Source of the DNA: Candidatus Poribacteria bacterium
Lineage (GTDB): Bacteria > Poribacteria > WGA-4E > PCPOR2b
DNA: 64,000 nt
NCBI GenBank assembly: GCA_965215015.1
Contig: OZ244042.1
Span: 352,001 to 416,000, forward strand
Direction of reading: 5' to 3'
Under the pieces are notes generated by a model. The model was given only the letters and a program-made list of their open reading frames with translations, did no database searches and was not told the DNA's origin. Position numbers and translations under genes: made by a program. Below, one piece after another: positions 6,643 through 30,115 of this stretch; within the stretch, counting starts at the first letter, position 1, and each line of letters starts with the position of its first letter.

Positions 6643-6770
6643 AGTAGATAGTGAGCTTTTCTCTGAATTTAACGCAACGTCGCCCCCCTCAGTCCCGAAT
6701 ACCCACACGGTTCTCTTCCCCCTGCTTGCGGGGGGACTGAGGGAGTTCTTAAAGGGGAAGGGGGGGCACC
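6643..6770. repeat. Composite intergenic repeat
   Basis: GCTTTTCTCTGAATTTAACGCAACGTCGC shared with ~19125; CCCGAATACCCACACGG shared with 24731/24792; CCCCCTGCTTGCGGGGGGACTGAGGGG shared with ~19175, 24760 and 41874. Confidence 0.8.
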
Positions 6771-6996
6771 CGATTCGGTTGCCTCCAAAGGGAATGCTTG
6801 CCATCGTGGATTCATGGTTTCATCGGGAGAAGGGGAGAAGAACGAAGAAACGCCTCCCATGCCCTGACAAAAGGGAAAACGGGAAGCCGATTCTCTCGCT
6901 TTCTCGTTATCTAACTATCCCGTTTTCTTTGCGTCTTAGCCCCTTGGCTCGCGCGCGTTTTATTATTTTATTAAAAGCCACTAACGACTTATTCCC

Positions 6997-8685
6997 TTAT
7001 ATTTTGGATCGCTGAAGGGCCCGACGGATAGCATATCCTCCAGAAATTAACACTATAATAAATAAGACCAAGACACCGATATTAATCAGGCGACGCCCAA
7101 AATTAAGTTCCCCTAGTCGTTTTGTCGCGAGTTCATACGGCGTTGAACCTTTTGCCGCCTGCAATTTTACCTGCTCCCAATAGACTTTAGATGCGTCTCG
7201 AAGATTTAGCCTATCTGCCAGCTTTGCAGTAGCGACAACGTAGGCGATGTTTTGGACGTTTACTTTATCCACTACCTCCGAAAAGGAGTCAAAGAGTAAT
7301 TTGGTAAACTCAGGGGACAGCGGCGGAAATTCGATGGTTTCCTCAATACCATTTTGGAATGCAGCTATGGCGTTCTCGTACGCCTTTCGATTAAACTGCA
7401 TTTGAGCAACTCCGAACCACGTCTTTTTACTAAGGACTAGGTCACGCTCTGTGGACTTGTGTGAGGCGAGTGTAAAATTTGCCTCCGTATGATAGAGCTC
7501 ATTGCTCTCGGCACGTAAGGTGTACATTTTACCCGGCTCCAGCACCTGTTTATCCAATCGATCCGCTTGGGGTGTAACGTTAACAATATTGGCAGAAAGT
7601 TGGTACCGACCATCTGCTTTGAGATATAGCGGATTCTGTTCGTACGTCGTTCCGTCTATCCACACCGTCCCGCCCTCAAGGGCGACACCATCAGGGGCTT
7701 TGATGCTGCCATGAACAGCAATGGATTCCAAATCCCATGAGAGATTAATCGATTCTCCCTGAACCATCTCAACTTCCACGGAACGCGCAGGCGGAATGAG
7801 GTATCCCAGCTTTCTAACCTCCACATTGTACGTCCCCCGTTGGAGGTTATCGGTAAGCCGTTGCGGCGTTACCCCTATCTCTTGTCCATTGAGGAAAACA
7901 GAGGCCCCATCAGGCACTGTCCTAACCTTGAGTACTGGGCTTAATTTTAAGACAACCTCCTGAATCTTCCCGATCGGGAGCAGAATCCCCTCTGTAAGCC
8001 GCAAAGTGCCGTCATCCAAATTCGAGGTGAGATAGGTGTGGAGCTCTTCAATGGAGACTTGCCGATTGCCATCAAGGTCGGTTTCATCAGTCCCTAACAC
8101 TCCCAATAATGTTTGCGCGAACAAATCCTCAGTGCTTAAGGCCGCACGCTGGATTGATATAAGTGCTGCAGTCCCTGGCATCCCGCGATTGGCGTAGTAC
8201 GCCATTAAATTCCGATCCCTAGTGTAGCCATCAAGAACGACAATCACTTTATTTTGGGACGATTCACGAAGCCAACGGTTTAATTGGCGGTCTTTAAGCG
8301 CATCTGTCAAATGCTCCGATGTCGATCCGTATGTTAAAAAGAAAATTGAATTCGATCTTCTCGGCTTCGTAACAAAACCGCGAAAGTAGAAGATGAGGCG
8401 ATCGCCTCGTCCCATTTCACTGCCAAGTTTATCTAAGCCAACCTTGATACCGTCGCGGGTGCACGCATCACCTTCGATTCGATGGATGTGTTTCGACAAG
8501 ACTTTTCCGCGTTCTTGCAGCAGATTGACCAATGAATCGAGATTACTTCGAGAACGGGTATCAGCGTCAGGGGTCACAATCAGCCACCAAGTTGTCGCAT
8601 CGGTAACTTGGGCATATAACGGCGAAACAGTGATAAGTGAAACCCCAATGAAGAATACGATAAGTACTAGAATTTGTTTCATCAT
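6997..8685 (-). CDS. PEGA-domain membrane-anchored protein with degenerate caspase-like (peptidase C14) N-terminal domain
   Basis: Signal peptide; GDRLIFYFRGF and VIVVLDGY at the positions of caspase FSGHG/LDAC; DLDGNRQVSIEELHTYL; PEGA motif VRTVPDGASVFLNGQEIGVTP; C-terminal TM helix. Confidence 0.7.
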   Translation of the reverse strand: MMKQILVLIVFFIGVSLITVSPLYAQVTDATTWWLIVTPDADTRSRSNLDSLVNLLQERGKVLSKHIHRIEGDACTRDGIKVGLDKLGSEMGRGDRLIFYFRGFVTKPRRSNSIFFLTYGSTSEHLTDALKDRQLNRWLRESSQNKVIVVLDGYTRDRNLMAYYANRGMPGTAALISIQRAALSTEDLFAQTLLGVLGTDETDLDGNRQVSIEELHTYLTSNLDDGTLRLTEGILLPIGKIQEVVLKLSPVLKVRTVPDGASVFLNGQEIGVTPQRLTDNLQRGTYNVEVRKLGYLIPPARSVEVEMVQGESINLSWDLESIAVHGSIKAPDGVALEGGTVWIDGTTYEQNPLYLKADGRYQLSANIVNVTPQADRLDKQVLEPGKMYTLRAESNELYHTEANFTLASHKSTERDLVLSKKTWFGVAQMQFNRKAYENAIAAFQNGIEETIEFPPLSPEFTKLLFDSFSEVVDKVNVQNIAYVVATAKLADRLNLRDASKVYWEQVKLQAAKGSTPYELATKRLGELNFGRRLINIGVLVLFIIVLISGGYAIRRALQRSKI

Positions 8686-23496: not shown

Positions 23497-24461
23497 CTTG
23501 GGGTATCCTGTCTGAAAAACGCATCCACCTGTGACTCCTGCTGCTCAAGCTCGGCGAGCCGACGGCGGCTGCGCTGTCGGCATCGGAGATACACTATAAT
23601 AAATACCAACCCAAGGCTGCCCCAAAAGAGATACGAATTTGAGAATATCGCTGCCCAATAGTAACGTTGGGAGAGCGAGGCTTGCCATTCTGCGTCGAAT
23701 CTGGCGAGATCCCAGCCGATGGCCTGTTCATACGCGGTATTCAGATCGTTCCCCGCGCCAAGTAGGTCGATAACCTCCCACAGCTTTTCGACCCCTGCAA
23801 TTTTTGTCAACCACACAACCGCATTCAAGCTCTCTGCGTAAGCCAACTGCGCCCCTCTTTCAGCACTTGGAAACCGCTCCGCTAGCTCCGCGAGCGGAAT
23901 AATCGATCTCGACAGGATATGTTCAAACATAACCTCCTGGCGGTGTGGCGTCCACTCTCCGGAAAGGTAAATCGCAATCCCTTCAATAAACCACAAGGGG
24001 ATGTCTCCAATCGTAGATTTCGTGCGCTGTCCAAAGGCGATGTGCACAATTTCGTGGCGGAGGACTTGGGAGAGTTGAAACTTTCGATCAATGATAACAC
24101 GTGGGTTCTGAATCACAATGCGGCGACTGAGTGGGAACGCACAACCGACCGCCCAATCTTGGATGGGAGCATGGGCGGCGGCTTTGAATTGCTGCTGTGT
24201 CTTGCATATCCAAATCTCAATCTTGTCCATCTCTATCCCATCAATCAGACGGTTGATGTGGGGATAGAAGTCCTCGGCAATATCGGCAATATCTTGGGGG
24301 TGGGTTTCGTCGGATTGGTAATAGATCTGGAAGTGCTCGCTGTCAAGCCTTTCCCAGGCAGCCTCAGCTGCGCTATGTAGTGTAACTGCGCTGAGGATCA
24401 GAAGAGTTAGCAAACAGAACCGGGAAAGAGGGCGTAATGCTTTCCAACCGATAACGTCCAT
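23493..24461 (-). CDS. Peptidase MA-like zinc metallohydrolase
   Basis: LRHEIVH (HExxH), PLWFIEGIA, LAYAES; signal peptide and C-terminal TM. Confidence 0.85.
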   Translation of the reverse strand: MDVIGWKALRPLSRFCLLTLLILSAVTLHSAAEAAWERLDSEHFQIYYQSDETHPQDIADIAEDFYPHINRLIDGIEMDKIEIWICKTQQQFKAAAHAPIQDWAVGCAFPLSRRIVIQNPRVIIDRKFQLSQVLRHEIVHIAFGQRTKSTIGDIPLWFIEGIAIYLSGEWTPHRQEVMFEHILSRSIIPLAELAERFPSAERGAQLAYAESLNAVVWLTKIAGVEKLWEVIDLLGAGNDLNTAYEQAIGWDLARFDAEWQASLSQRYYWAAIFSNSYLFWGSLGLVFIIVYLRCRQRSRRRLAELEQQESQVDAFFRQDTPS

Positions 24462-24550
24462 GCTCTTGCCCGTCCTTTTGTAGTGGATGCCAAAAAAGTT
24501 ACGCCATTAAAGCATGATGCCCCTCTAAGGATTTGGCAACCTTAGAAAGT

Positions 24551-24830
24551 TAGAAGTTACGCACCTGAGTTTGTAGTCGCGCAATTCAACCCGCGTCTTT
24601 AAGGGAGTAGGCATACCCCGTATGCCGTCCCCCCTTCCCCGCTAAATACCGGGTGGAGTGTCCATCAATTCCTGGCTCATTGGACCTGTTTCCCCCTCGC
24701 TTGCGTTCTTGGGGGACTAAGGGGAGTAATCCCGAATACCCACACGGTTTTTTCCCCTCCCCCTGCTTGCGGGGGGACTGAGGGGGGTAATCCCGAATAC
24801 CCACACGGTTCTTTTCCCCTCCCCCTTTGT
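24551..24830. repeat. Composite MITE/REP element, family B
   Basis: TAG.AGTTACGCAC.TGAGTTTGTAGTCGCGCAATTCAACCCGCGTCTTTAAGGGAGT.GGCATAC...GTATGCC, also at 40425, 41773 and 61146; followed by duplicated CCCGAATACCCACACGG modules. Confidence 0.8.
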
Positions 24831-24863
24831 TACCGATGCAAAAAGATTTGTCGATGGTGATAC

Positions 24864-25645
24864 CTATCCTGTTTATCCTTCCATCCTGAAAATCATGATT
24901 CAGCACACGGATTCAAATAGCCACCTTATCTGATTCAGACATTTTCCGCCGCTGTCAGAATCTGGATTTACCGGATTCTATGATTCTCAGGATTCTTAGA
25001 TGATGGCGTTTCTATCCTGTTTATCCTTCCATCCTGGAAACCCTGATTCAGCACACGGATTCAAAGACTGTCAGAATCTGGATTTACCGGATTCTATGAT
25101 TCTCAGGATTCTTAGATGCTAGCGTTTCTATCCTGTTTATCTCTCCAGCCTGGAAACCCTGATTCAGACATTTTCCGCACAATCCACAATAGCCATTTCT
25201 TCACGAGTCAGAACGTATTAAACGTATTAATTGTCAGAATCTGGATTCACCAGATTGTGTGATTCTCAGGATTCTTAGATGATGGCGTTTCTATCCTGTT
25301 TATCCTTCCATCCTGAAAATCTTGATTCAGACATTTTCCGCACAATCCACAATAGCCATTTCTTCACGAGTCAGAACGTATTAAACGTATTAATTGTCAG
25401 AATCTGGATTCACCAGATTCTATGATTCGCAGGATTCTTAGATGCTGCCGTTTCTATCCTGTTTATCCTTCCATCCTGAAAATCATGATTCAGACATTTT
25501 CCGCACAATCCACAATAGCCATTTCTTCATCGGATACCTCGGCTGTCAGAATCTGGATTTACCGGATTGTATGATTCTCAGGATGTTTAGATGCTGCCGT
25601 TTCTATCCTGTTTATCCTTCCATCCTGAAAATCATGATTCAGACA
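24864..25645. repeat. Array of 102-bp palindromic elements with short spacers
   Basis: TGTCAGAATCTGGATT...AATCATGATTCAGACA units at 24953-25051 (3 nt short), 25069-25170, 25232-25333, 25395-25496 and 25544-25645, plus a half unit at 24864-24903; spacers of 17, 61, 61 and 47 bp. Confidence 0.92.
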
Positions 25646-28600
25646 TTTCCCTCCACAATAGCGATTTCTTCAGAGGTAAGACCGTATAACAAGTATACTA
25701 TCTGATCAATCTCATTTTCAAGTTCGGATACATCCGCGTCCGGATCCGTGTCTTTGGCAGCGAGAATCTGATTGACGATTTTGACAATTGCTCCTTGTTG
25801 TCCAGGAGTAATAGTTGGAACAGGAATCTTGCCTACATAGTAGTTATCGAAATCCATAGTTCTAATTGCGGCACAAAAAATAAACCTGTAAGCATACCAG
25901 TTTATGAGCGTTGAATTAAAAAGAGATGCAATAAAAAACGGACTAAAATTTTTATCTGTAATGACCGTGTTTTCGACTGTATCAACACTCAGTATATTGC
26001 CAGCTTCATCAACCGTTGAAGTTATTTTGATATGAGGCTTAGGATTCTGAATATGAGCCACAAGCCTCTGAGAAATTACTTTCGGCTGAAGCAAAAATCG
26101 AATTTTTCGATTGGTCAGATCTAAATTTTCACAGTTTATAAATCCTTTTATTCCTACAATTCCATACCGGCTTACCTCTTTTCCGCCAATCACTTGAGTA
26201 TCACCATGCGTGCTGAGATATTTTTGTATAGGCAATCCTCGCGTTGTTTTAGAAATGTTGCTGAGATACGTCCCTGCCCCCACAATCTTTGAACCCAGTT
26301 TAATCTCATCACTTGACACATCACATATCCAAGCATGAAACTGTTTGGGATATTTCCTATTGATATGAATTGTTCGCGTAAAAACATTATTCAAGAACTT
26401 ACGCCCAATGTAAAAACGACTATTACATTGAGCACTCCAAATAAAAACAACCTGCTCCAACTTGACCTCTCCAAATGCTTTTTCAACATCTACTAAAATA
26501 GCTGTCTTTTCTAATAGAGCGAAAGTTAAATCCAGCCATCTTTCGGAATACAACAGAGATTTAGGAACAATAAAAGCAACAACACCATCTGCCCTATCAG
26601 TCCTAATTAAACGGTTCTTTGCATAATCAATAAACAATGCCGCACTGTTTGAATTTCTCGTGTCTTGGATATTAACTTTGATCTTGTTCAAGTCGCTGCG
26701 GTTAATTTTAGCACCATACGGCGGATTGCCAATCACTACATCAAAGCCCTCCCTGACCCCAAACATCCACTCCGGATCGAACCAATCCGCGCTTGCGTTC
26801 TGGTCGTAGGGGTCCCAAGCGGCGACTTTATTCGCATCATCGGTAGGCATACCGATATGCGTTAATTCTGTCGCCAATGCTCGCCGCAATTTCTTGTCGG
26901 CTCGCTTACACTCTAGTTTCTGTGAGCGTGTCGTTGCGTGAAAATGCCGCTCGCGGTTCTCACTCAATTCCCCTTCCAATGCTTTGGCCCTGGGGCTGGT
27001 CAGGGTTCGTTCGCCTTCGAGACCGATGAGCGTGTTTGCCGAGATAAATCGTGTCTCCAGATTGGGCAGCGGCTTAATCCCAAAGTTAGCTGAGGCACTA
27101 TCCGGCTCCTGCTCAATGGCAAGGGAGATGAAAAAGCGGAGCTTAGCGATTTGGCAGGCTATGGATTGAATGTCCACACCGAAGATACTGTTTTGAATCA
27201 GATACAACTTCCGTCCGAAGTTGCCCGAATAATTTTCAAAGATTCTGCTAATTTCCGTGAGCTCTTCGTCGCGGCTCTGTCTATCCTTCGTATCAAACGC
27301 ATCCGCCGCCCGTTGGAGGGCGCGTTCTTTCTGTAGCTGTTCCCATCGGGTGTTATCCGGGTCCAGCCGTCGTAGGGCGAGCGTCAGTTTGTGTAGTATC
27401 CCCATCGGAAACGCCCCGGAGCCGACGGCGGGGTCAAGTATCTTCAGTTCTGAAATTGCCCGCACCACCTCGTCGGCTTCGCGGCTATCGAACCATTCGT
27501 TTGCATCGTCGAACGCCTTCGCATAATCGAACAGATAGCGCAACCGCTCGTCCCAAGCCTTGGGGTCTCCGTCCGTCGGGGCCACCTGTCCTGCAAGCGT
27601 GGCTACTAACGTCTCCTCTACCATGTAGTCCACAATGGCGCGGGGGGTGTAATAGGAACCCGTCTGCTTCCGTGCCGTTGTACCAGTTTCGGGGTTATAC
27701 GCAGCGAGCAGGTTTTCAAACACCTTACCGAGCAGCTCCGGATCCAATGCGACCTCCTGCTCTATCGGTGTGTTTTCTTCAACGGTGAACTTGTAGCGTT
27801 CCAGTAGGGGAATCAGACCGTAAGCATCATCAAAGAAGAGACGGTTGGGGATGCTTAATTGACTGTAATGCACATCGGAGAAGCAATCCACCCGGTAGCC
27901 GCCATCTCGTGTCGCCTCCTCGCTGTCGAGGCAATCGAATAAGCCACCGTTAATGAATGGGGTTTTCTCAAAGAGTGCTAGCAGTTTATCGGAATCGGCT
28001 ATCTGGTCTTTGTAGCGATACCGTGAGAAATTGCGATGAGCCGGGTTGCCCCCTTCGCTAAACCCACGCTTCTCTATCTCCGTGTTCAGCGTGGCGAAAA
28101 ACAGATTCTGTAGCACCGCCCGGTAGTAGGAATCGCCCGTGCCCCGGTCATAGTTTTTCAGCAATGGGGCGACGGGCGTCTCGTTGAACAGGTCATCGGC
28201 GACCAGTCCCTTCTCTTTGATAAACCAGACGAATAGCAGGCGCGTGATTAAGCGGATGACGTGCTCCTCCGATTTCAAGGTACGCTTTTCGTTTGTCGGG
28301 AACTCCCCTTCATCAACCGCCCATTCAAACCAGTCGAACAACTCTCGGTAGAATTTCTTGTTGAGTGCTTCGGTGTCGAGTGTCTTTTCCCAAGCGCGAT
28401 GCAGCTCGACAAAGTTGCGGACACCGTGCGTTTGGTTCAACGGGTCGAGGGCGAGATCGAATAGGATATCGATGTGGGCGCGGTGGGGATACTCGAAATT
28501 AATGTCCTTGATAAGGGTTACTTTTTCAAGGACATCGCGGGATGGGTCCCTTACCCCCAAACGGCGATTGATAATTGACAGCGTGAGCGTATTGCCGTGT

Positions 28601-29040
28601 TGAAAGAGCAGCATCGCGGGTATCGAGAACAACTTGTTGATTTCACGGGTGATTTGCGATAGTTGGGTGCGGTTGTAACCGCTGCCCTCCAACCGGATTG
28701 CGAAGAAAAGGTAGGACTCGATGATGGTGTTATCTACCTGCGTCTGGCTGGGATTGAAAATCCATCGGGTTGTATCCGTGGGCGTCAGCTCCTCGCCTGT
28801 GAGTTGGAAAAGCAGGTCAATAGAGGTCCACTCTGCTGTCAGTGCCCTATCGCGACTTAGTTTTTCTTGCGAATCATACGCGTCAATAAAGGCCTCGGCG
28901 GTATTCGACTCAAGGGCTAGCGTCCTTTCGCTCCGATAGCCGAGTGTGTTGAGTAGGTTTCGGCTGTTTTCGACGAGGCCCCCCGCGGTGAAGCGGTTTA
29001 AGGCCTCCTTGATAGCGGTTTTGTGTTGTGGGGCACTCAT
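25639..29040 (-). CDS. Eco57I/Type IIG-like N6-adenine DNA methyltransferase with C-terminal TaqI-like target recognition domain
   Basis: PFINGGLF, LLGKVFENLL, TGSYYTP, ILDPAVGSGAFP (motif I), GFDVVIGNPPY (motif IV), C-terminal EIDQIVYLLYGLTSEEIAIVE. Confidence 0.9.
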   Translation of the reverse strand: MSAPQHKTAIKEALNRFTAGGLVENSRNLLNTLGYRSERTLALESNTAEAFIDAYDSQEKLSRDRALTAEWTSIDLLFQLTGEELTPTDTTRWIFNPSQTQVDNTIIESYLFFAIRLEGSGYNRTQLSQITREINKLFSIPAMLLFQHGNTLTLSIINRRLGVRDPSRDVLEKVTLIKDINFEYPHRAHIDILFDLALDPLNQTHGVRNFVELHRAWEKTLDTEALNKKFYRELFDWFEWAVDEGEFPTNEKRTLKSEEHVIRLITRLLFVWFIKEKGLVADDLFNETPVAPLLKNYDRGTGDSYYRAVLQNLFFATLNTEIEKRGFSEGGNPAHRNFSRYRYKDQIADSDKLLALFEKTPFINGGLFDCLDSEEATRDGGYRVDCFSDVHYSQLSIPNRLFFDDAYGLIPLLERYKFTVEENTPIEQEVALDPELLGKVFENLLAAYNPETGTTARKQTGSYYTPRAIVDYMVEETLVATLAGQVAPTDGDPKAWDERLRYLFDYAKAFDDANEWFDSREADEVVRAISELKILDPAVGSGAFPMGILHKLTLALRRLDPDNTRWEQLQKERALQRAADAFDTKDRQSRDEELTEISRIFENYSGNFGRKLYLIQNSIFGVDIQSIACQIAKLRFFISLAIEQEPDSASANFGIKPLPNLETRFISANTLIGLEGERTLTSPRAKALEGELSENRERHFHATTRSQKLECKRADKKLRRALATELTHIGMPTDDANKVAAWDPYDQNASADWFDPEWMFGVREGFDVVIGNPPYGAKINRSDLNKIKVNIQDTRNSNSAALFIDYAKNRLIRTDRADGVVAFIVPKSLLYSERWLDLTFALLEKTAILVDVEKAFGEVKLEQVVFIWSAQCNSRFYIGRKFLNNVFTRTIHINRKYPKQFHAWICDVSSDEIKLGSKIVGAGTYLSNISKTTRGLPIQKYLSTHGDTQVIGGKEVSRYGIVGIKGFINCENLDLTNRKIRFLLQPKVISQRLVAHIQNPKPHIKITSTVDEAGNILSVDTVENTVITDKNFSPFFIASLFNSTLINWYAYRFIFCAAIRTMDFDNYYVGKIPVPTITPGQQGAIVKIVNQILAAKDTDPDADVSELENEIDQIVYLLYGLTSEEIAIVEGNV

Positions 29041-29116
29041 TGAAAAACTCCTTTAGGTGTGGAAACCCATAGCGCACGGTTCAACGATATCATCGGAGCA
29101 ATAACTATGTACGCCC

Positions 29117-30115
29117 CTAACTCGTCTGAGATAAAGCCTCCCGAAACGCCTTGACGTGCGCGGGGTTTGTACCACAACAACCGCCGATTAGATAAGCACC
29201 TTCCTTAATCAACGCTGGCAGGTAAGGTGACATCTCCTCCGGGGCTTGGGGCCAATATGTCTCCTGATTCTCGTCTAAACGTGCCATACCCGCATTTGGA
29301 TAAGCCATCAACCGTTTTGAATTAATGCCCCGCTCCTCCATCGCTTCGCGCAGCTGCTGGATGCCGTTTATCGCATAGGGCATTCCCGTATGCTCCTCAC
29401 GCCTTGATTCTGCACCGCAGTTTAGGCCTAAGATTTGAACGTGATCGAGTAGATTGTCTCCGTTGGAGAACTCCCCTTCGGCTAGGATCCGGACGAGAGA
29501 TACAGCCGAATGCCCCCAATCCGTTTTGTATATTACCCTCTTCGTTCGCCGATCCATAGTGTACTTATAAGTCATATTCACGGCGATGGGAACCCCCGTT
29601 TTTCTCGCAACGTCGACAGCGATTGCAGCCTCCTTTGCGGAGAACATAGTTTCAATACAAAAAAAGTCCACCCCTTCTTCTGCGAGCGTGTTTATCACCC
29701 GCTCATGTGCATCTCGGACCGCTTCATTTGCAATACCAAAATCAACGCCGCCGCTATCGGCTTCGATTGCGCCGGGCGAAGGGCCCACTGAACCAGCAAT
29801 ATATACATCCCTCCCACTTCTCTCAACGGCTGCTCTCGCGTGCGCCGCGGCCTGCTTTGTCATCTTCTCGGCTTCGGCTGCGTCTTTCCCCGCCATTTCG
29901 AGGTGCAGGGGAGAAGCAACAAATGTGTTCGTTCCGATTGCGTCAGCACCCGCTTGAATGTAAGCCGAATGAATGTCAATAACAGTTTCCGGGTGCAATT
30001 CGTTTGCGAGAGCACTGTTTGCCAAAGCAATGCCCGCAGTGAAGAGCTGCGAGCCAAACCCACCGTCATAAATCATTGGGGTGGGATCTTTCAATCTATC
30101 CAAGAATGTCTTCAT
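29117..30115 (-). CDS. Homocysteine S-methyltransferase family protein (stand-alone MetH N-terminal domain)
   Basis: DGGFGSQL, AGADAIGTNTF, GLNC, YPNAG, GGCCGT Zn ligands. Confidence 0.9.
   Translation of the reverse strand: MKTFLDRLKDPTPMIYDGGFGSQLFTAGIALANSALANELHPETVIDIHSAYIQAGADAIGTNTFVASPLHLEMAGKDAAEAEKMTKQAAAHARAAVERSGRDVYIAGSVGPSPGAIEADSGGVDFGIANEAVRDAHERVINTLAEEGVDFFCIETMFSAKEAAIAVDVARKTGVPIAVNMTYKYTMDRRTKRVIYKTDWGHSAVSLVRILAEGEFSNGDNLLDHVQILGLNCGAESRREEHTGMPYAINGIQQLREAMEERGINSKRLMAYPNAGMARLDENQETYWPQAPEEMSPYLPALIKEGAYLIGGCCGTNPAHVKAFREALSQTS

Follow-up and report, generated by a model that had tools for sequence, protein, structure and literature searches.

A palindromic repeat at the stop codons of large restriction genes in a Candidatus Poribacteria genome, and its arrays of relic gene ends

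A 64-kb window (the whole stretch of DNA analysed here) from the 5.94-Mb, single-contig genome of a sponge-symbiotic Candidatus Poribacteria bacterium carries G1, a putative type IIG restriction endonuclease-methyltransferase gene, and directly behind it, at 24864-25700, an array in which a 102-nt imperfect palindrome, here called P, is repeated five times in full and once as a half copy (Table 1). Positions are those of the window unless marked as genome, and genome-wide gene calls are raw open reading frames (ORFs). The somewhat favoured explanation is that P is a palindrome of the kind known as repetitive extragenic palindromes (REP) and bacterial interspersed mosaic elements (BIME), that tandem duplication and ectopic recombination co-amplify the gene ends beside it, and that the target recognition domains (TRDs) of the enzymes are swapped by homologous recombination. 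TRD exchange, repeats flanking restriction-modification (RM) genes and REP/BIME arrays are each known; the present system is a variant with a stop-seated palindrome and fossil gene ends. No description of this element in Poribacteria was found in the literature, and none of a phylum-wide palindrome family on the stop of RM genes, of a bias towards large enzymes or of arrays of gene-end fossils.

The array beside G1 and its relic spacers

P consists of two inverted arms. Its + strand sequence is TGTCAGAATC...GATTCAGACA. Its 10-nt termini, TGTCTGAATC...GATTCTGACA, are complementary save for one central base and were invariant in 14 of 14 aligned copies, and its interior is built from units of the GGATT/AATCC type with a 9-nt period. 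As DNA, P is predicted to fold into a bulged hairpin of -15.6 kcal/mol (z -3.8; equalled by 0 of 200 shuffles), in agreement with the hairpin that the initial annotation had proposed, and the predicted RNA fold reaches -31.5 kcal/mol (z -4.6). The five 102-bp palindromes with short spacers that had been described there were recovered by coordinates, together with the half copy. The spacers between the copies are 17, 47, ~49, 61 and 61 nt long, and Tandem Repeats Finder reported two periods, one of 163 nt (3.6 copies, 90% matches) and the other of 116 nt. The neighbours of the array are the type IIG gene and a Peptidase_MA_2 gene.

An assembly artefact had been named as one possible origin of the array. 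Two of its junctions were reproduced in independent short-read contigs: the P-spacer-P junction at 25323-25419 was matched exactly in three public runs from two studies, and the junction between gene end and P at 25604-25723 in one public run. These contigs confirm junctions, not copy number, which is supported by the assembly alone. Some contig joints jump over 699 nt (24948/9 to 25648/9), with flanks just 25-26 nt long; they may be repeat collapses and were left unused.

On the - strand, each of the three spacers closest to the gene reads as a diverged copy of the last 16-17 codons of G1, as had been recognized initially. The 47-nt spacer encodes AEVSDEEMAIVDCAENV and a stop, and both 61-nt spacers encode ...LTREEMAIVDCAENV and a stop; by comparison with the 3' end of G1 itself, the 47-nt spacer looks like a gene end with an internal deletion. 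The outer two spacers share CACACGGATTCAAA, again as first described, and the longer of them (the B-type linker) resembles, by eye, a degenerate remnant of the CGGATT-type palindrome of relatives. A CRISPR (clustered regularly interspaced short palindromic repeats) array was considered and rejected: the spacers are self-derived, repeated within and between arrays and 11-61 nt long, and the repeat is a 102-nt palindrome. Only the repeat-spacer layout is held in common, which is what the initial annotation had concluded, and no cas genes were found among the ORFs flanking the window array (neighbours only; no genome-wide cas search was made).

G1 is one of eight close paralogues (G1-G8), and 46 relics were typed against the seven real gene ends recovered by the search pattern. 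In the G6 array, 8 of 8 relics are of the gene's own type and the nearest is identical to the present end of G6, which indicates plain tandem duplication of the gene end plus P. Own-type relics number 0 of 3 at G1, 2 of 8 at G2, 2 of 7 at G7 and 2 of 9 at G8. The window relics are closest to the end of G2 (TREE...CAENV), and the G2 array contains two relics of the unusual VEGNV type of G1. The two relics farthest from the gene in the G7 array are of G6 type, one of them identical (41/41) to the end of G6, and the G8 array carries mostly G2-type relics. Judged from these matches, the arrays preserve gene ends from several paralogues, and so form a rare archive, inside the genome itself, of earlier recombination at defence loci. 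Mixed relics could arise by replacement of TRD and end upstream of an existing array or by exchange of units between arrays, and probably both occur; the mismatch between the window relics and the end of G1 fits a past replacement of TRD plus end.

Each unit of the array had been proposed to be the scar of one TRD replacement at an attC-like site. The identical tandem spacers and the G6 relics, all of own type, speak against this, as do the relic units at loci without a type IIG gene; no TRD sequence was found in the relics. Orphan relic units follow an HD-domain gene (an 18-copy array at 730 kb with 7 identical spacers) and a DUF1156 DNA methylase gene, and a multicopper oxidase gene and a second DUF1156 methylase gene are each trailed by an array with linker-type spacers only. 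The G2- and G5-type relics in the orphan arrays show that units are transferred, or genes lost, in the absence of a resident gene. D1, a DUF1156 methylase, is itself a chimera: its sequence ...QQQLTIK continues with IVEGAENV, stop and P, whereas that of its paralogue D2 continues with EVLPPKQAPVP and stop, the same gene tail and P array following 22 nt further downstream.

Nearly every relic and gene end in the genome (for example at 25190-25212) contains CTGAAG, or the variants CTGCAG or GTGAAG, at the P-E-E codons. CTGAAG is the recognition site of Eco57I/AcuI-type enzymes.

Genome-wide spread and position behind restriction genes

A blastn search of the genome with one P copy returned 253 high-scoring segment pairs, 73 of which are near-full copies spread over 13 loci, where the longest array has 18 of them, and a profile of the 43-nt left arm returned 292 matches at 94 loci. 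The array beside an RM gene is as initially reported, but it is one of 13 such loci in the genome and not unique. Only three to four linker or spacer types recur across the 13 loci: a 52-nt unit encoding LYGLxPEE(I/M)AIVExAE(N/H), which is the gene-end relic of the window, a 49-nt linker, and short linkers of 11 and 17 nt. Most intervals between copies measure 11-61 nt, and the longest (205-397 nt) contain half elements and relics. A distal module of 41-45 nt starting ATTGTATAC is common to seven array or P loci.

REP and BIME are short imperfect palindromes that occur in hundreds of copies just after stop codons, form inverted pairs and tandem arrays with few linker types, and are prone to recombination. 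With these, and with REP doublets forming hairpins (REPINs), P shares its high copy number as an extragenic palindrome at gene 3' ends and its clusters of inverted pairs joined by few recurrent linkers. It differs in its 102-nt unit, its 9-nt sub-repeats, its overlap with a coding stop, its bias towards large restriction genes and its linkers of fossil coding sequence; no intact Y1 transposase of the REP-associated tyrosine transposase (RAYT) type was found in the genome.

Copies of P differ by a mean of 9.5 mismatches within arrays versus 13.4 between arrays. The nearest neighbour lies in the same array for 54 of 71 copies and in another array for 17 of 71, a pattern that indicates mainly local amplification with some exchange between loci. 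Local amplification argues against a rather improbable alternative, in which P is a miniature inverted-repeat transposable element (MITE) moved by a transposase encoded elsewhere that prefers the 3' ends or terminators of large restriction genes, the arrays having formed by repeated adjacent insertion. P does have terminal inverted repeats in its 10-nt termini, a high copy number and a dispersed distribution that includes ~19 housekeeping genes, and its fixed distal and variable proximal ends recall one-ended or truncating transposition. The arrays at 4534 kb and 5418 kb begin at a P terminus right after ...TTAA, and the distal module ends ...TTAA, a possible target duplication, although this evidence comes from two loci only. 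On the other side, the gene-end junction owes its phylum-wide conservation to descent (below) and not to repeated insertion, no autonomous partner with the same ends was found, and no element in the genome was found in which both P termini bracket a transposase gene. Genome searches returned two Y1_Tnp fragments only (149 aa with one stop, and 91 aa, at 1.53 and 2.41 Mb), with neither P nor an arm near them, and 0 IS110 matches; the search for IS91/Y2 also gave 0 matches, but so did its positive control. The only empty site examined spans the whole 4.6-kb segment of gene plus array and not a single P copy.

The association of P with restriction genes was quantified over every ORF with a DNA-methylase Pfam match (n=69) by scoring an arm within 300 nt downstream of the stop. 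An arm was present behind 16 of 26 methylase-domain ORFs of at least 900 aa and behind 0 of 43 smaller ones, compared with 21 of 2541 control ORFs of at least 300 codons and 2 of 142 controls of at least 900 codons; in all, 37 ORFs of at least 300 codons have an arm at this distance. These counts include paralogues that share their flanks by descent and so overstate the number of independent events, but the family-level pattern remains: the arm-positive large enzymes represent no fewer than eight families (G, D, E, F, H, two type ISP families and a 1004-aa N6_N4 methylase), MmeI/Eco57I-like enzymes included. The 21 arm-positive controls are mostly (~19) ordinary housekeeping genes. The enrichment after Eco57I-type genes for which a search had been suggested is thus borne out, and the link between element and restriction genes is strong and specific. 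Genome-wide scatter of the element without such a link had been envisaged as evidence against the initial proposal; the element is scattered (94 arm loci), but the link to RM genes is strong and the TRD at the orthologous locus differs. P can serve as a practical marker for large restriction genes and their rearrangements in Poribacteria assemblies. The genome contains at least 69 distinct methylase-Pfam ORFs, 26 of them of at least 900 aa, an unusually large RM repertoire; sponge symbionts invest heavily in defence genes.

Many large restriction genes have P between -6 and +60 nt of their stop, in most cases with the same orientation; the arm is reversed in the H family and in the 1044-aa type ISP family. 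At exactly 7 of the 94 arm loci (six paralogues and D1) the ORF that ends at the TGA of the arm exceeds 900 codons, and at all others the frame that this TGA closes has at most 102 codons. The initial annotation had the element supply the stop of G1. The GTC TGA of G1, which ends ...EEIAIVEGNV and stop, does lie inside the proximal copy, P5, and six of the eight paralogues end ...AIVExxEN(V/G) with the stop within P, but the stop is not newly supplied. It lies inside GTCTGAATC in 35 of 70 homologues with usable flank (from 78 loci), and some homologues that keep only the first 9-17 nt of the element still end ...V with the TGA inside GTCTGAATC; the same holds for 0 of 11 records labelled as other phyla. 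The palindrome-at-stop junction is therefore ancestral, and the element donates no new stop. Family members in relatives end ...EEIAIVEGAENV and stop, with the TGA inside TGTCTGAATC, and are followed by palindromes of 76-104 nt that share the termini of P and have a different interior (CGGATT/AATCCG units), with predicted DNA folding energies of -12.6 to -25.7 kcal/mol. The repeat family thus marks the 3' boundary of type IIG genes across the whole candidate phylum. Palindrome structure across genera was judged by per-sequence folds; in a cross-genus covariation analysis the interiors were unalignable and the terminal helix alone was recovered, with double changes in 2 of 14 pairs that probably stem from one lineage. 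Relic gene ends were found downstream of family members in three other species, and no large arrays among the loci examined in relatives.

A hairpin in this position could also be kept as an RNA or transcription element, a structured 3' untranslated region that ends or stabilises long, potentially toxic enzyme transcripts. This is very unlikely, as is its corollary that array expansion tunes expression and the relic codons are irrelevant passengers. The placement of P around the stops of many large restriction genes, mostly in one orientation, its strong predicted hairpin on either strand, and the persistence of position and structure across the phylum while the interior sequence changes all accord with such a role. 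However, the hairpin is followed by no U-tract, window positions 24300-26000 gave no Rfam match at E<=1, the orientation is reversed in two of the families, and the function of one hairpin leaves 5-18 copies unexplained.

Three observations concern the surroundings of these genes. Downstream of H-family Eco57I-like genes (genome 4392688-4394055, 1835658-1838568 and 4885163-4886287) the arms lie in opposite orientation and alternate with pieces of a small downstream ORF that are duplicated in tandem (period ~228 nt), which indicates that arm-associated co-amplification of neighbouring coding DNA extends beyond the ends of type IIG genes. In many homologues (L024, L035, L037, L122, L148, L157, L159, L167 and L178) the stop overlaps or nearly abuts a conserved downstream ORF starting MSKPLKGFITYSHKD..., which may be a candidate partner gene where the palindrome is absent or displaced. 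Homologues 55-69% identical over the best aligned segment occur in records labelled Latescibacterota, Binatia, Chlorobiota, Cyanobacteria (including sponge Synechococcus), Dehalococcoidia and Alphaproteobacteria (L157, L168, L170, L180, L184 and L194-L196), and this suggests that the enzyme family has spread horizontally without the palindrome.

Mosaic type IIG genes and a model for the arrays

G1 matches Pfam Eco57I (1.7e-18) and TaqI_C (3e-5) and the PADLOC model REase_MTase_IIG (3.9e-48). These matches mark it as a predicted type IIG enzyme, a single chain that combines a methylase domain of the gamma-class N6-adenine type with a specificity domain of the TaqI_C type at the C-terminus. Residues 1-430 matched no Pfam family, and a sequence search of solved structures with G1 gave none at E<=0.01. 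All eight paralogues found by tblastn in the genome are intact.

The nucleotide identity of G1 to G2, G6, G7 and G8 in sliding windows is 72-98% over the first ~2.3 kb, and this part of G1 is mostly closer to these paralogues than to the positional orthologue in the relative G003 (73-91%). Identity to the paralogues drops abruptly to 26-59% in the TRD, as it does to the syntenic G003 gene, and is back at 76-83% in the last ~150 nt. G5 is additionally mosaic, its first ~600 nt being ~50% identical. When 24 TRD segments from this genome and 10 relatives were typed, they fell into 11 types that are shared between species, and every paralogue has its own type except G5 and G7, which have the same one. 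Five of the seven types in G1-G8 (those of G1, G4, G5/G7, G6 and G8) have counterparts in other species at 70-90% protein identity among the genes examined, in which the TRDs of G2 and G3 have none at the typing threshold of >=60%. Conserved flanks joined to unrelated TRDs with sharp breaks in identity point to TRD exchange by homologous recombination. In this way the repertoire is kept fluid, with gene bodies homogenised and TRDs from a species-spanning pool swapped between loci.

The orthologous locus could be followed in relatives. In three congeners no more than 54-66 nt separate the two genes that flank the window locus, and in the other 14 the distance is ~1.15-2.6 kb; the one such insert that was inspected, in G002, holds an unrelated gene, enolase-family-like by eye. 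A type IIG gene stands between the flanking genes only in this genome and in G003. The G003 gene is 84% identical in the gene body and 79% at the 3' end, its TRD is unrelated, it has no P array, and it ends by microhomology 5 nt into the element. Different TRDs joined to the same gene body and 3' end, which the initial annotation had anticipated, are thus found both here and among the paralogues. TRD replacement occurs at orthologous and paralogous loci alike, and the array, which had been held to be part of it, is not required. The best match to the G1 TRD is a non-syntenic G003 gene (77-87% nucleotide identity) whose 5' part is only 55-87% identical to that of G1, and the homology between the two stops at the bounds of the ORF.

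Comparable exchange is described in the available portions of the work of Furuta et al. on Helicobacter and Campylobacter RM genes, in which TRDs are swapped between alleles or paralogues via conserved flanks and type IIG genes have allelic TRDs at one locus (PMC2853133, PMC3077401, PMC3467074). Set against those portions, the present system differs in its eight paralogues per genome, its species-spanning TRD pool and a flank that is a palindrome array keeping displaced gene ends. The available portion of PMC2853133 also describes repeats that flank RM genes, and an insertion with long target duplication at RM loci (Nobusato/Furuta/Kobayashi), in which direct duplications of tens to hundreds of bp flank the insert and no transposase is involved. 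At the window locus, by contrast, the segment has been multiplied many-fold, and nothing but the palindrome stands between the duplicates. A similar case to the published one was seen in the relative G015 (L031:1029-2241), where a gene end (~45 codons) is present on both sides of an insert of ~950 nt that contains an unrelated 228-aa ORF, the full palindrome being attached to the second copy alone; the arrangement resembles an insertion of the published type.

The preferred explanation can be set out in steps. P would be a member of a Poribacteria-wide family of REP/BIME-like palindromes. This family has long been seated on the stop codon of the type IIG genes; in this genome it also lies directly behind several other large restriction-enzyme families and has expanded into arrays. 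A short tandem duplication of the last ~17 codons and P would first have produced two direct P copies. Its end points were probably short direct repeats, GTATAC/TTATAC in the gene and ATTGTATAC just after P: at the array junction P is followed by ATT(G)TATACGG, which matches both ...GTATACTTGTTATACGG of the gene and the ATTGTATAC of the distal module and suggests end points of this kind. Unequal crossing-over or slippage between P copies would then amplify the unit, and ectopic recombination or gene conversion between arrays would swap units together with variable lengths of gene tail, tails being sometimes grafted onto unrelated genes, as in D1. Separately, recombination between paralogues would homogenise the first 2.3 kb and replace the TRD and 3' end as a block, with the conserved gene body on one side and the conserved 3' end or P on the other as homology arms. 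After such a block replacement the downstream relics would mismatch the gene, which is the present state of the window locus. The spacers, real fossils of gene ends, would accordingly be co-amplified passengers and P a recombination-prone repeat rather than a dedicated recombinase site, a conclusion towards which the evidence leans, if not heavily. What the data show directly is the distribution of P, its enrichment, the mosaic genes, the ancestral junction and the local amplification; how the duplication arose, in which direction units moved and whether P serves as a homology arm are deduced from these. If P is indeed not recognised by an enzyme, the arrays illustrate clearly how, in nature, coding sequence can be captured by palindrome-driven tandem duplication.

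Several observations weigh against this explanation. The enrichment behind at least eight families of large restriction enzymes is not obviously predicted for a passive repeat and hints at targeting, selection or co-mobility, with the reservation that non-independent paralogues inflate the counts. Conserved termini with free interiors resemble a site recognised by a protein, and homology between G1 and its counterpart at the other G003 locus is confined to the ORF, as expected for a discrete mobile unit. The microhomology origin is based on a few short motifs, and a 9-nt slip inside a longer relic would fit equally. The large-enzyme bias and the invariant termini are the observations least well explained.

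Table 1. Features of the window array, of G1 and of two further genes ending in the element
Feature	Position	Strand	Remarks
Segment missing from the empty site of three congeners (flanking genes there 54-66 nt apart)	24491..29125		
Terminal half element, left arm only (~40 nt)	24864..24907	-	then GTATCACCATCGAC...
B-type linker, ~49 nt	24908..24952	-	11-nt gene-end tail + GTCTGAATCAGAT + ...TTTGAATCCGTGTG; found in 6 further arrays
P1 palindrome	24953..25054	-	variant in first 3 nt
Short linker, 17 nt, GTCTTTGAATCCGTGTG	25052..25068	-	found again in arrays at 5418 kb and 5664 kb
P2 palindrome	25069..25170	-	
Relic spacer, 61 nt	25171..25231	-	identical to 25334-25394, tandem duplicate
P3 palindrome	25232..25333	-	
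Relic spacer, 61 nt, ...LTREEMAIVDCAEN	25334..25394	-	closest real gene end is that of paralogue G2
P4 palindrome	25395..25496	-	
Relic spacer, 47 nt, AEVSDEEMAIVDCAEN	25497..25543	-	reads as gene end; apparent internal deletion fusing ADVS(E) to EEMAIV
P5, gene-proximal 102-nt palindrome	25544..25645	-	first bases contain last codon and stop of G1 (GTC TGA)
G1, putative type IIG restriction endonuclease-methyltransferase, 1133 aa	25639..29040	-	one of 8 close paralogues (tblastn)
G1 conserved 3' end, ...ADVSELENEIDQIVYLLYGLTSEEIAIVEGNV and stop	25639..25790	-	source type of relic spacers; identity back to 55-83% in last window
G1 variable TRD segment, ~residues 775-1035	25935..26715	-	boundaries approximate; identity to paralogues and to the syntenic G003 gene drops here from 85-98% to 26-59%
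Type ISP enzyme, 1618 aa (Mrr_cat_2, ResIII, N6_Mtase, Type_ISP_C), ends ...LLSES and stop	genome 5302930-5307786	+	last codons and stop inside arm, in a frame different from that of type IIG genes
D1 (DUF1156 DNA methylase)	genome 5660581-5663469	-	native last 11 codons replaced by IVEGAENV and stop from type IIG tail + P; arrays on both sides

Recombinases of the genome and the cassette alternative

The features least well explained above would be accommodated if P were an attC- or dif-like site at which a tyrosine recombinase acting in trans moves restriction genes, or cassettes of TRD and gene end, the arrays being emptied or minimal cassettes. This must be considered doubtful, and the same degree of doubt attaches to its prediction that the inverted arms carry iterated AGGAT binding motifs in addition to the fixed termini. 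attC sites are imperfect palindromes of ~60-140 nt with conserved ends and free interiors that lie at the 3' ends of genes and form direct-orientation arrays. P shares each of these characters, its termini being invariant while its interiors vary between genera yet stay palindromic. The stop codon is embedded in the site, as in many cassette ends, three genes (G8, D1 and G2) have P copies in direct orientation on both sides, and the enrichment behind at least eight families of large restriction genes would follow. However, the termini TGTCTGAATC/GATTCTGACA appear to differ from the attC core consensus, most of the intervals, at 11-61 nt, contain no ORF or other cassette content, and the 13 arrays are dispersed rather than gathered on one platform. 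The position of the junction also varies (gene-tail remnants of 0, ~10, 18 and 21 nt), with no single crossover point, and at the orthologous locus in G003 the end of the gene was formed by microhomology within the element. No integron-type integrase or attI-like platform was found.

A co-occurring tyrosine or HUH recombinase had been expected from the initial proposal, and none was found consistently adjacent to the arrays; the Y1 fragments are distant. Among 15 ORFs flanking five of the paralogues there was no site-specific recombinase, and the sole mobility gene was an IS1595-family transposase beside the G8 array. The genome gave 11 tyrosine recombinase matches, which form one Xer-like multi-copy family, and 0 of the 11 lie within 4 kb of the 13 P loci. 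In favour of a connection, four copies of one recombinase sub-family have an arm 60-150 nt ahead of their start, and two P-like copies lie upstream of another member, making five such genes. The four arm-bearing copies share the arm by descent, though, and count as one event. Terminus motifs were found within 600 nt upstream at 0 of 29 homologous recombinase loci in 16 congeners, where homologues of sub-family A were covered by weaker matches only; the link between recombinase and arm therefore looks incidental. Three recombinases scanned with NCBIfam matched Xer-type models (XerC/D/XerA) weakly, at 54-72 bits and below cut-offs, with no integron-integrase model among the matches listed.

It is likewise unlikely that a Poribacteria-specific recombination system recognises the palindrome as its site and makes large single-chain enzymes (type IIG, type ISP and DUF1156) and their specificity modules portable between loci; a cassette platform of this sort is unsupported. 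Were the palindrome an enzyme-recognised site, it would constitute a new, phylum-wide and integron-like platform of gene exchange for defence specificity, with the arrays as its footprints and the fossil gene ends as a readable history of past specificities. The explanation by REP/BIME-like amplification and homologous exchange of TRDs is retained here.

The Xer-like recombinases are encoded by a compact element of ~1.2 kb that encodes nothing else and is present in 10-11 copies or fragments (genome 2380105-2381296, equivalent to L081:2105-3295; 6754-7903; 2700656-2701399; 2864644-2865525). In one sub-family it bears a single arm, close to the 5' end. Another repeat, G-rich and ~61 nt long (GGGGGACT.AGGGG.GTAATCCCGAATACCCACACGG...), is present in 1.9 tandem copies at 24689-24826, where it fills part of the interval from the array to the peptidase gene. 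A recombinase gene at genome 3.62 Mb is preceded by similar sequence, and the repeat is probably a further dispersed small repeat family.

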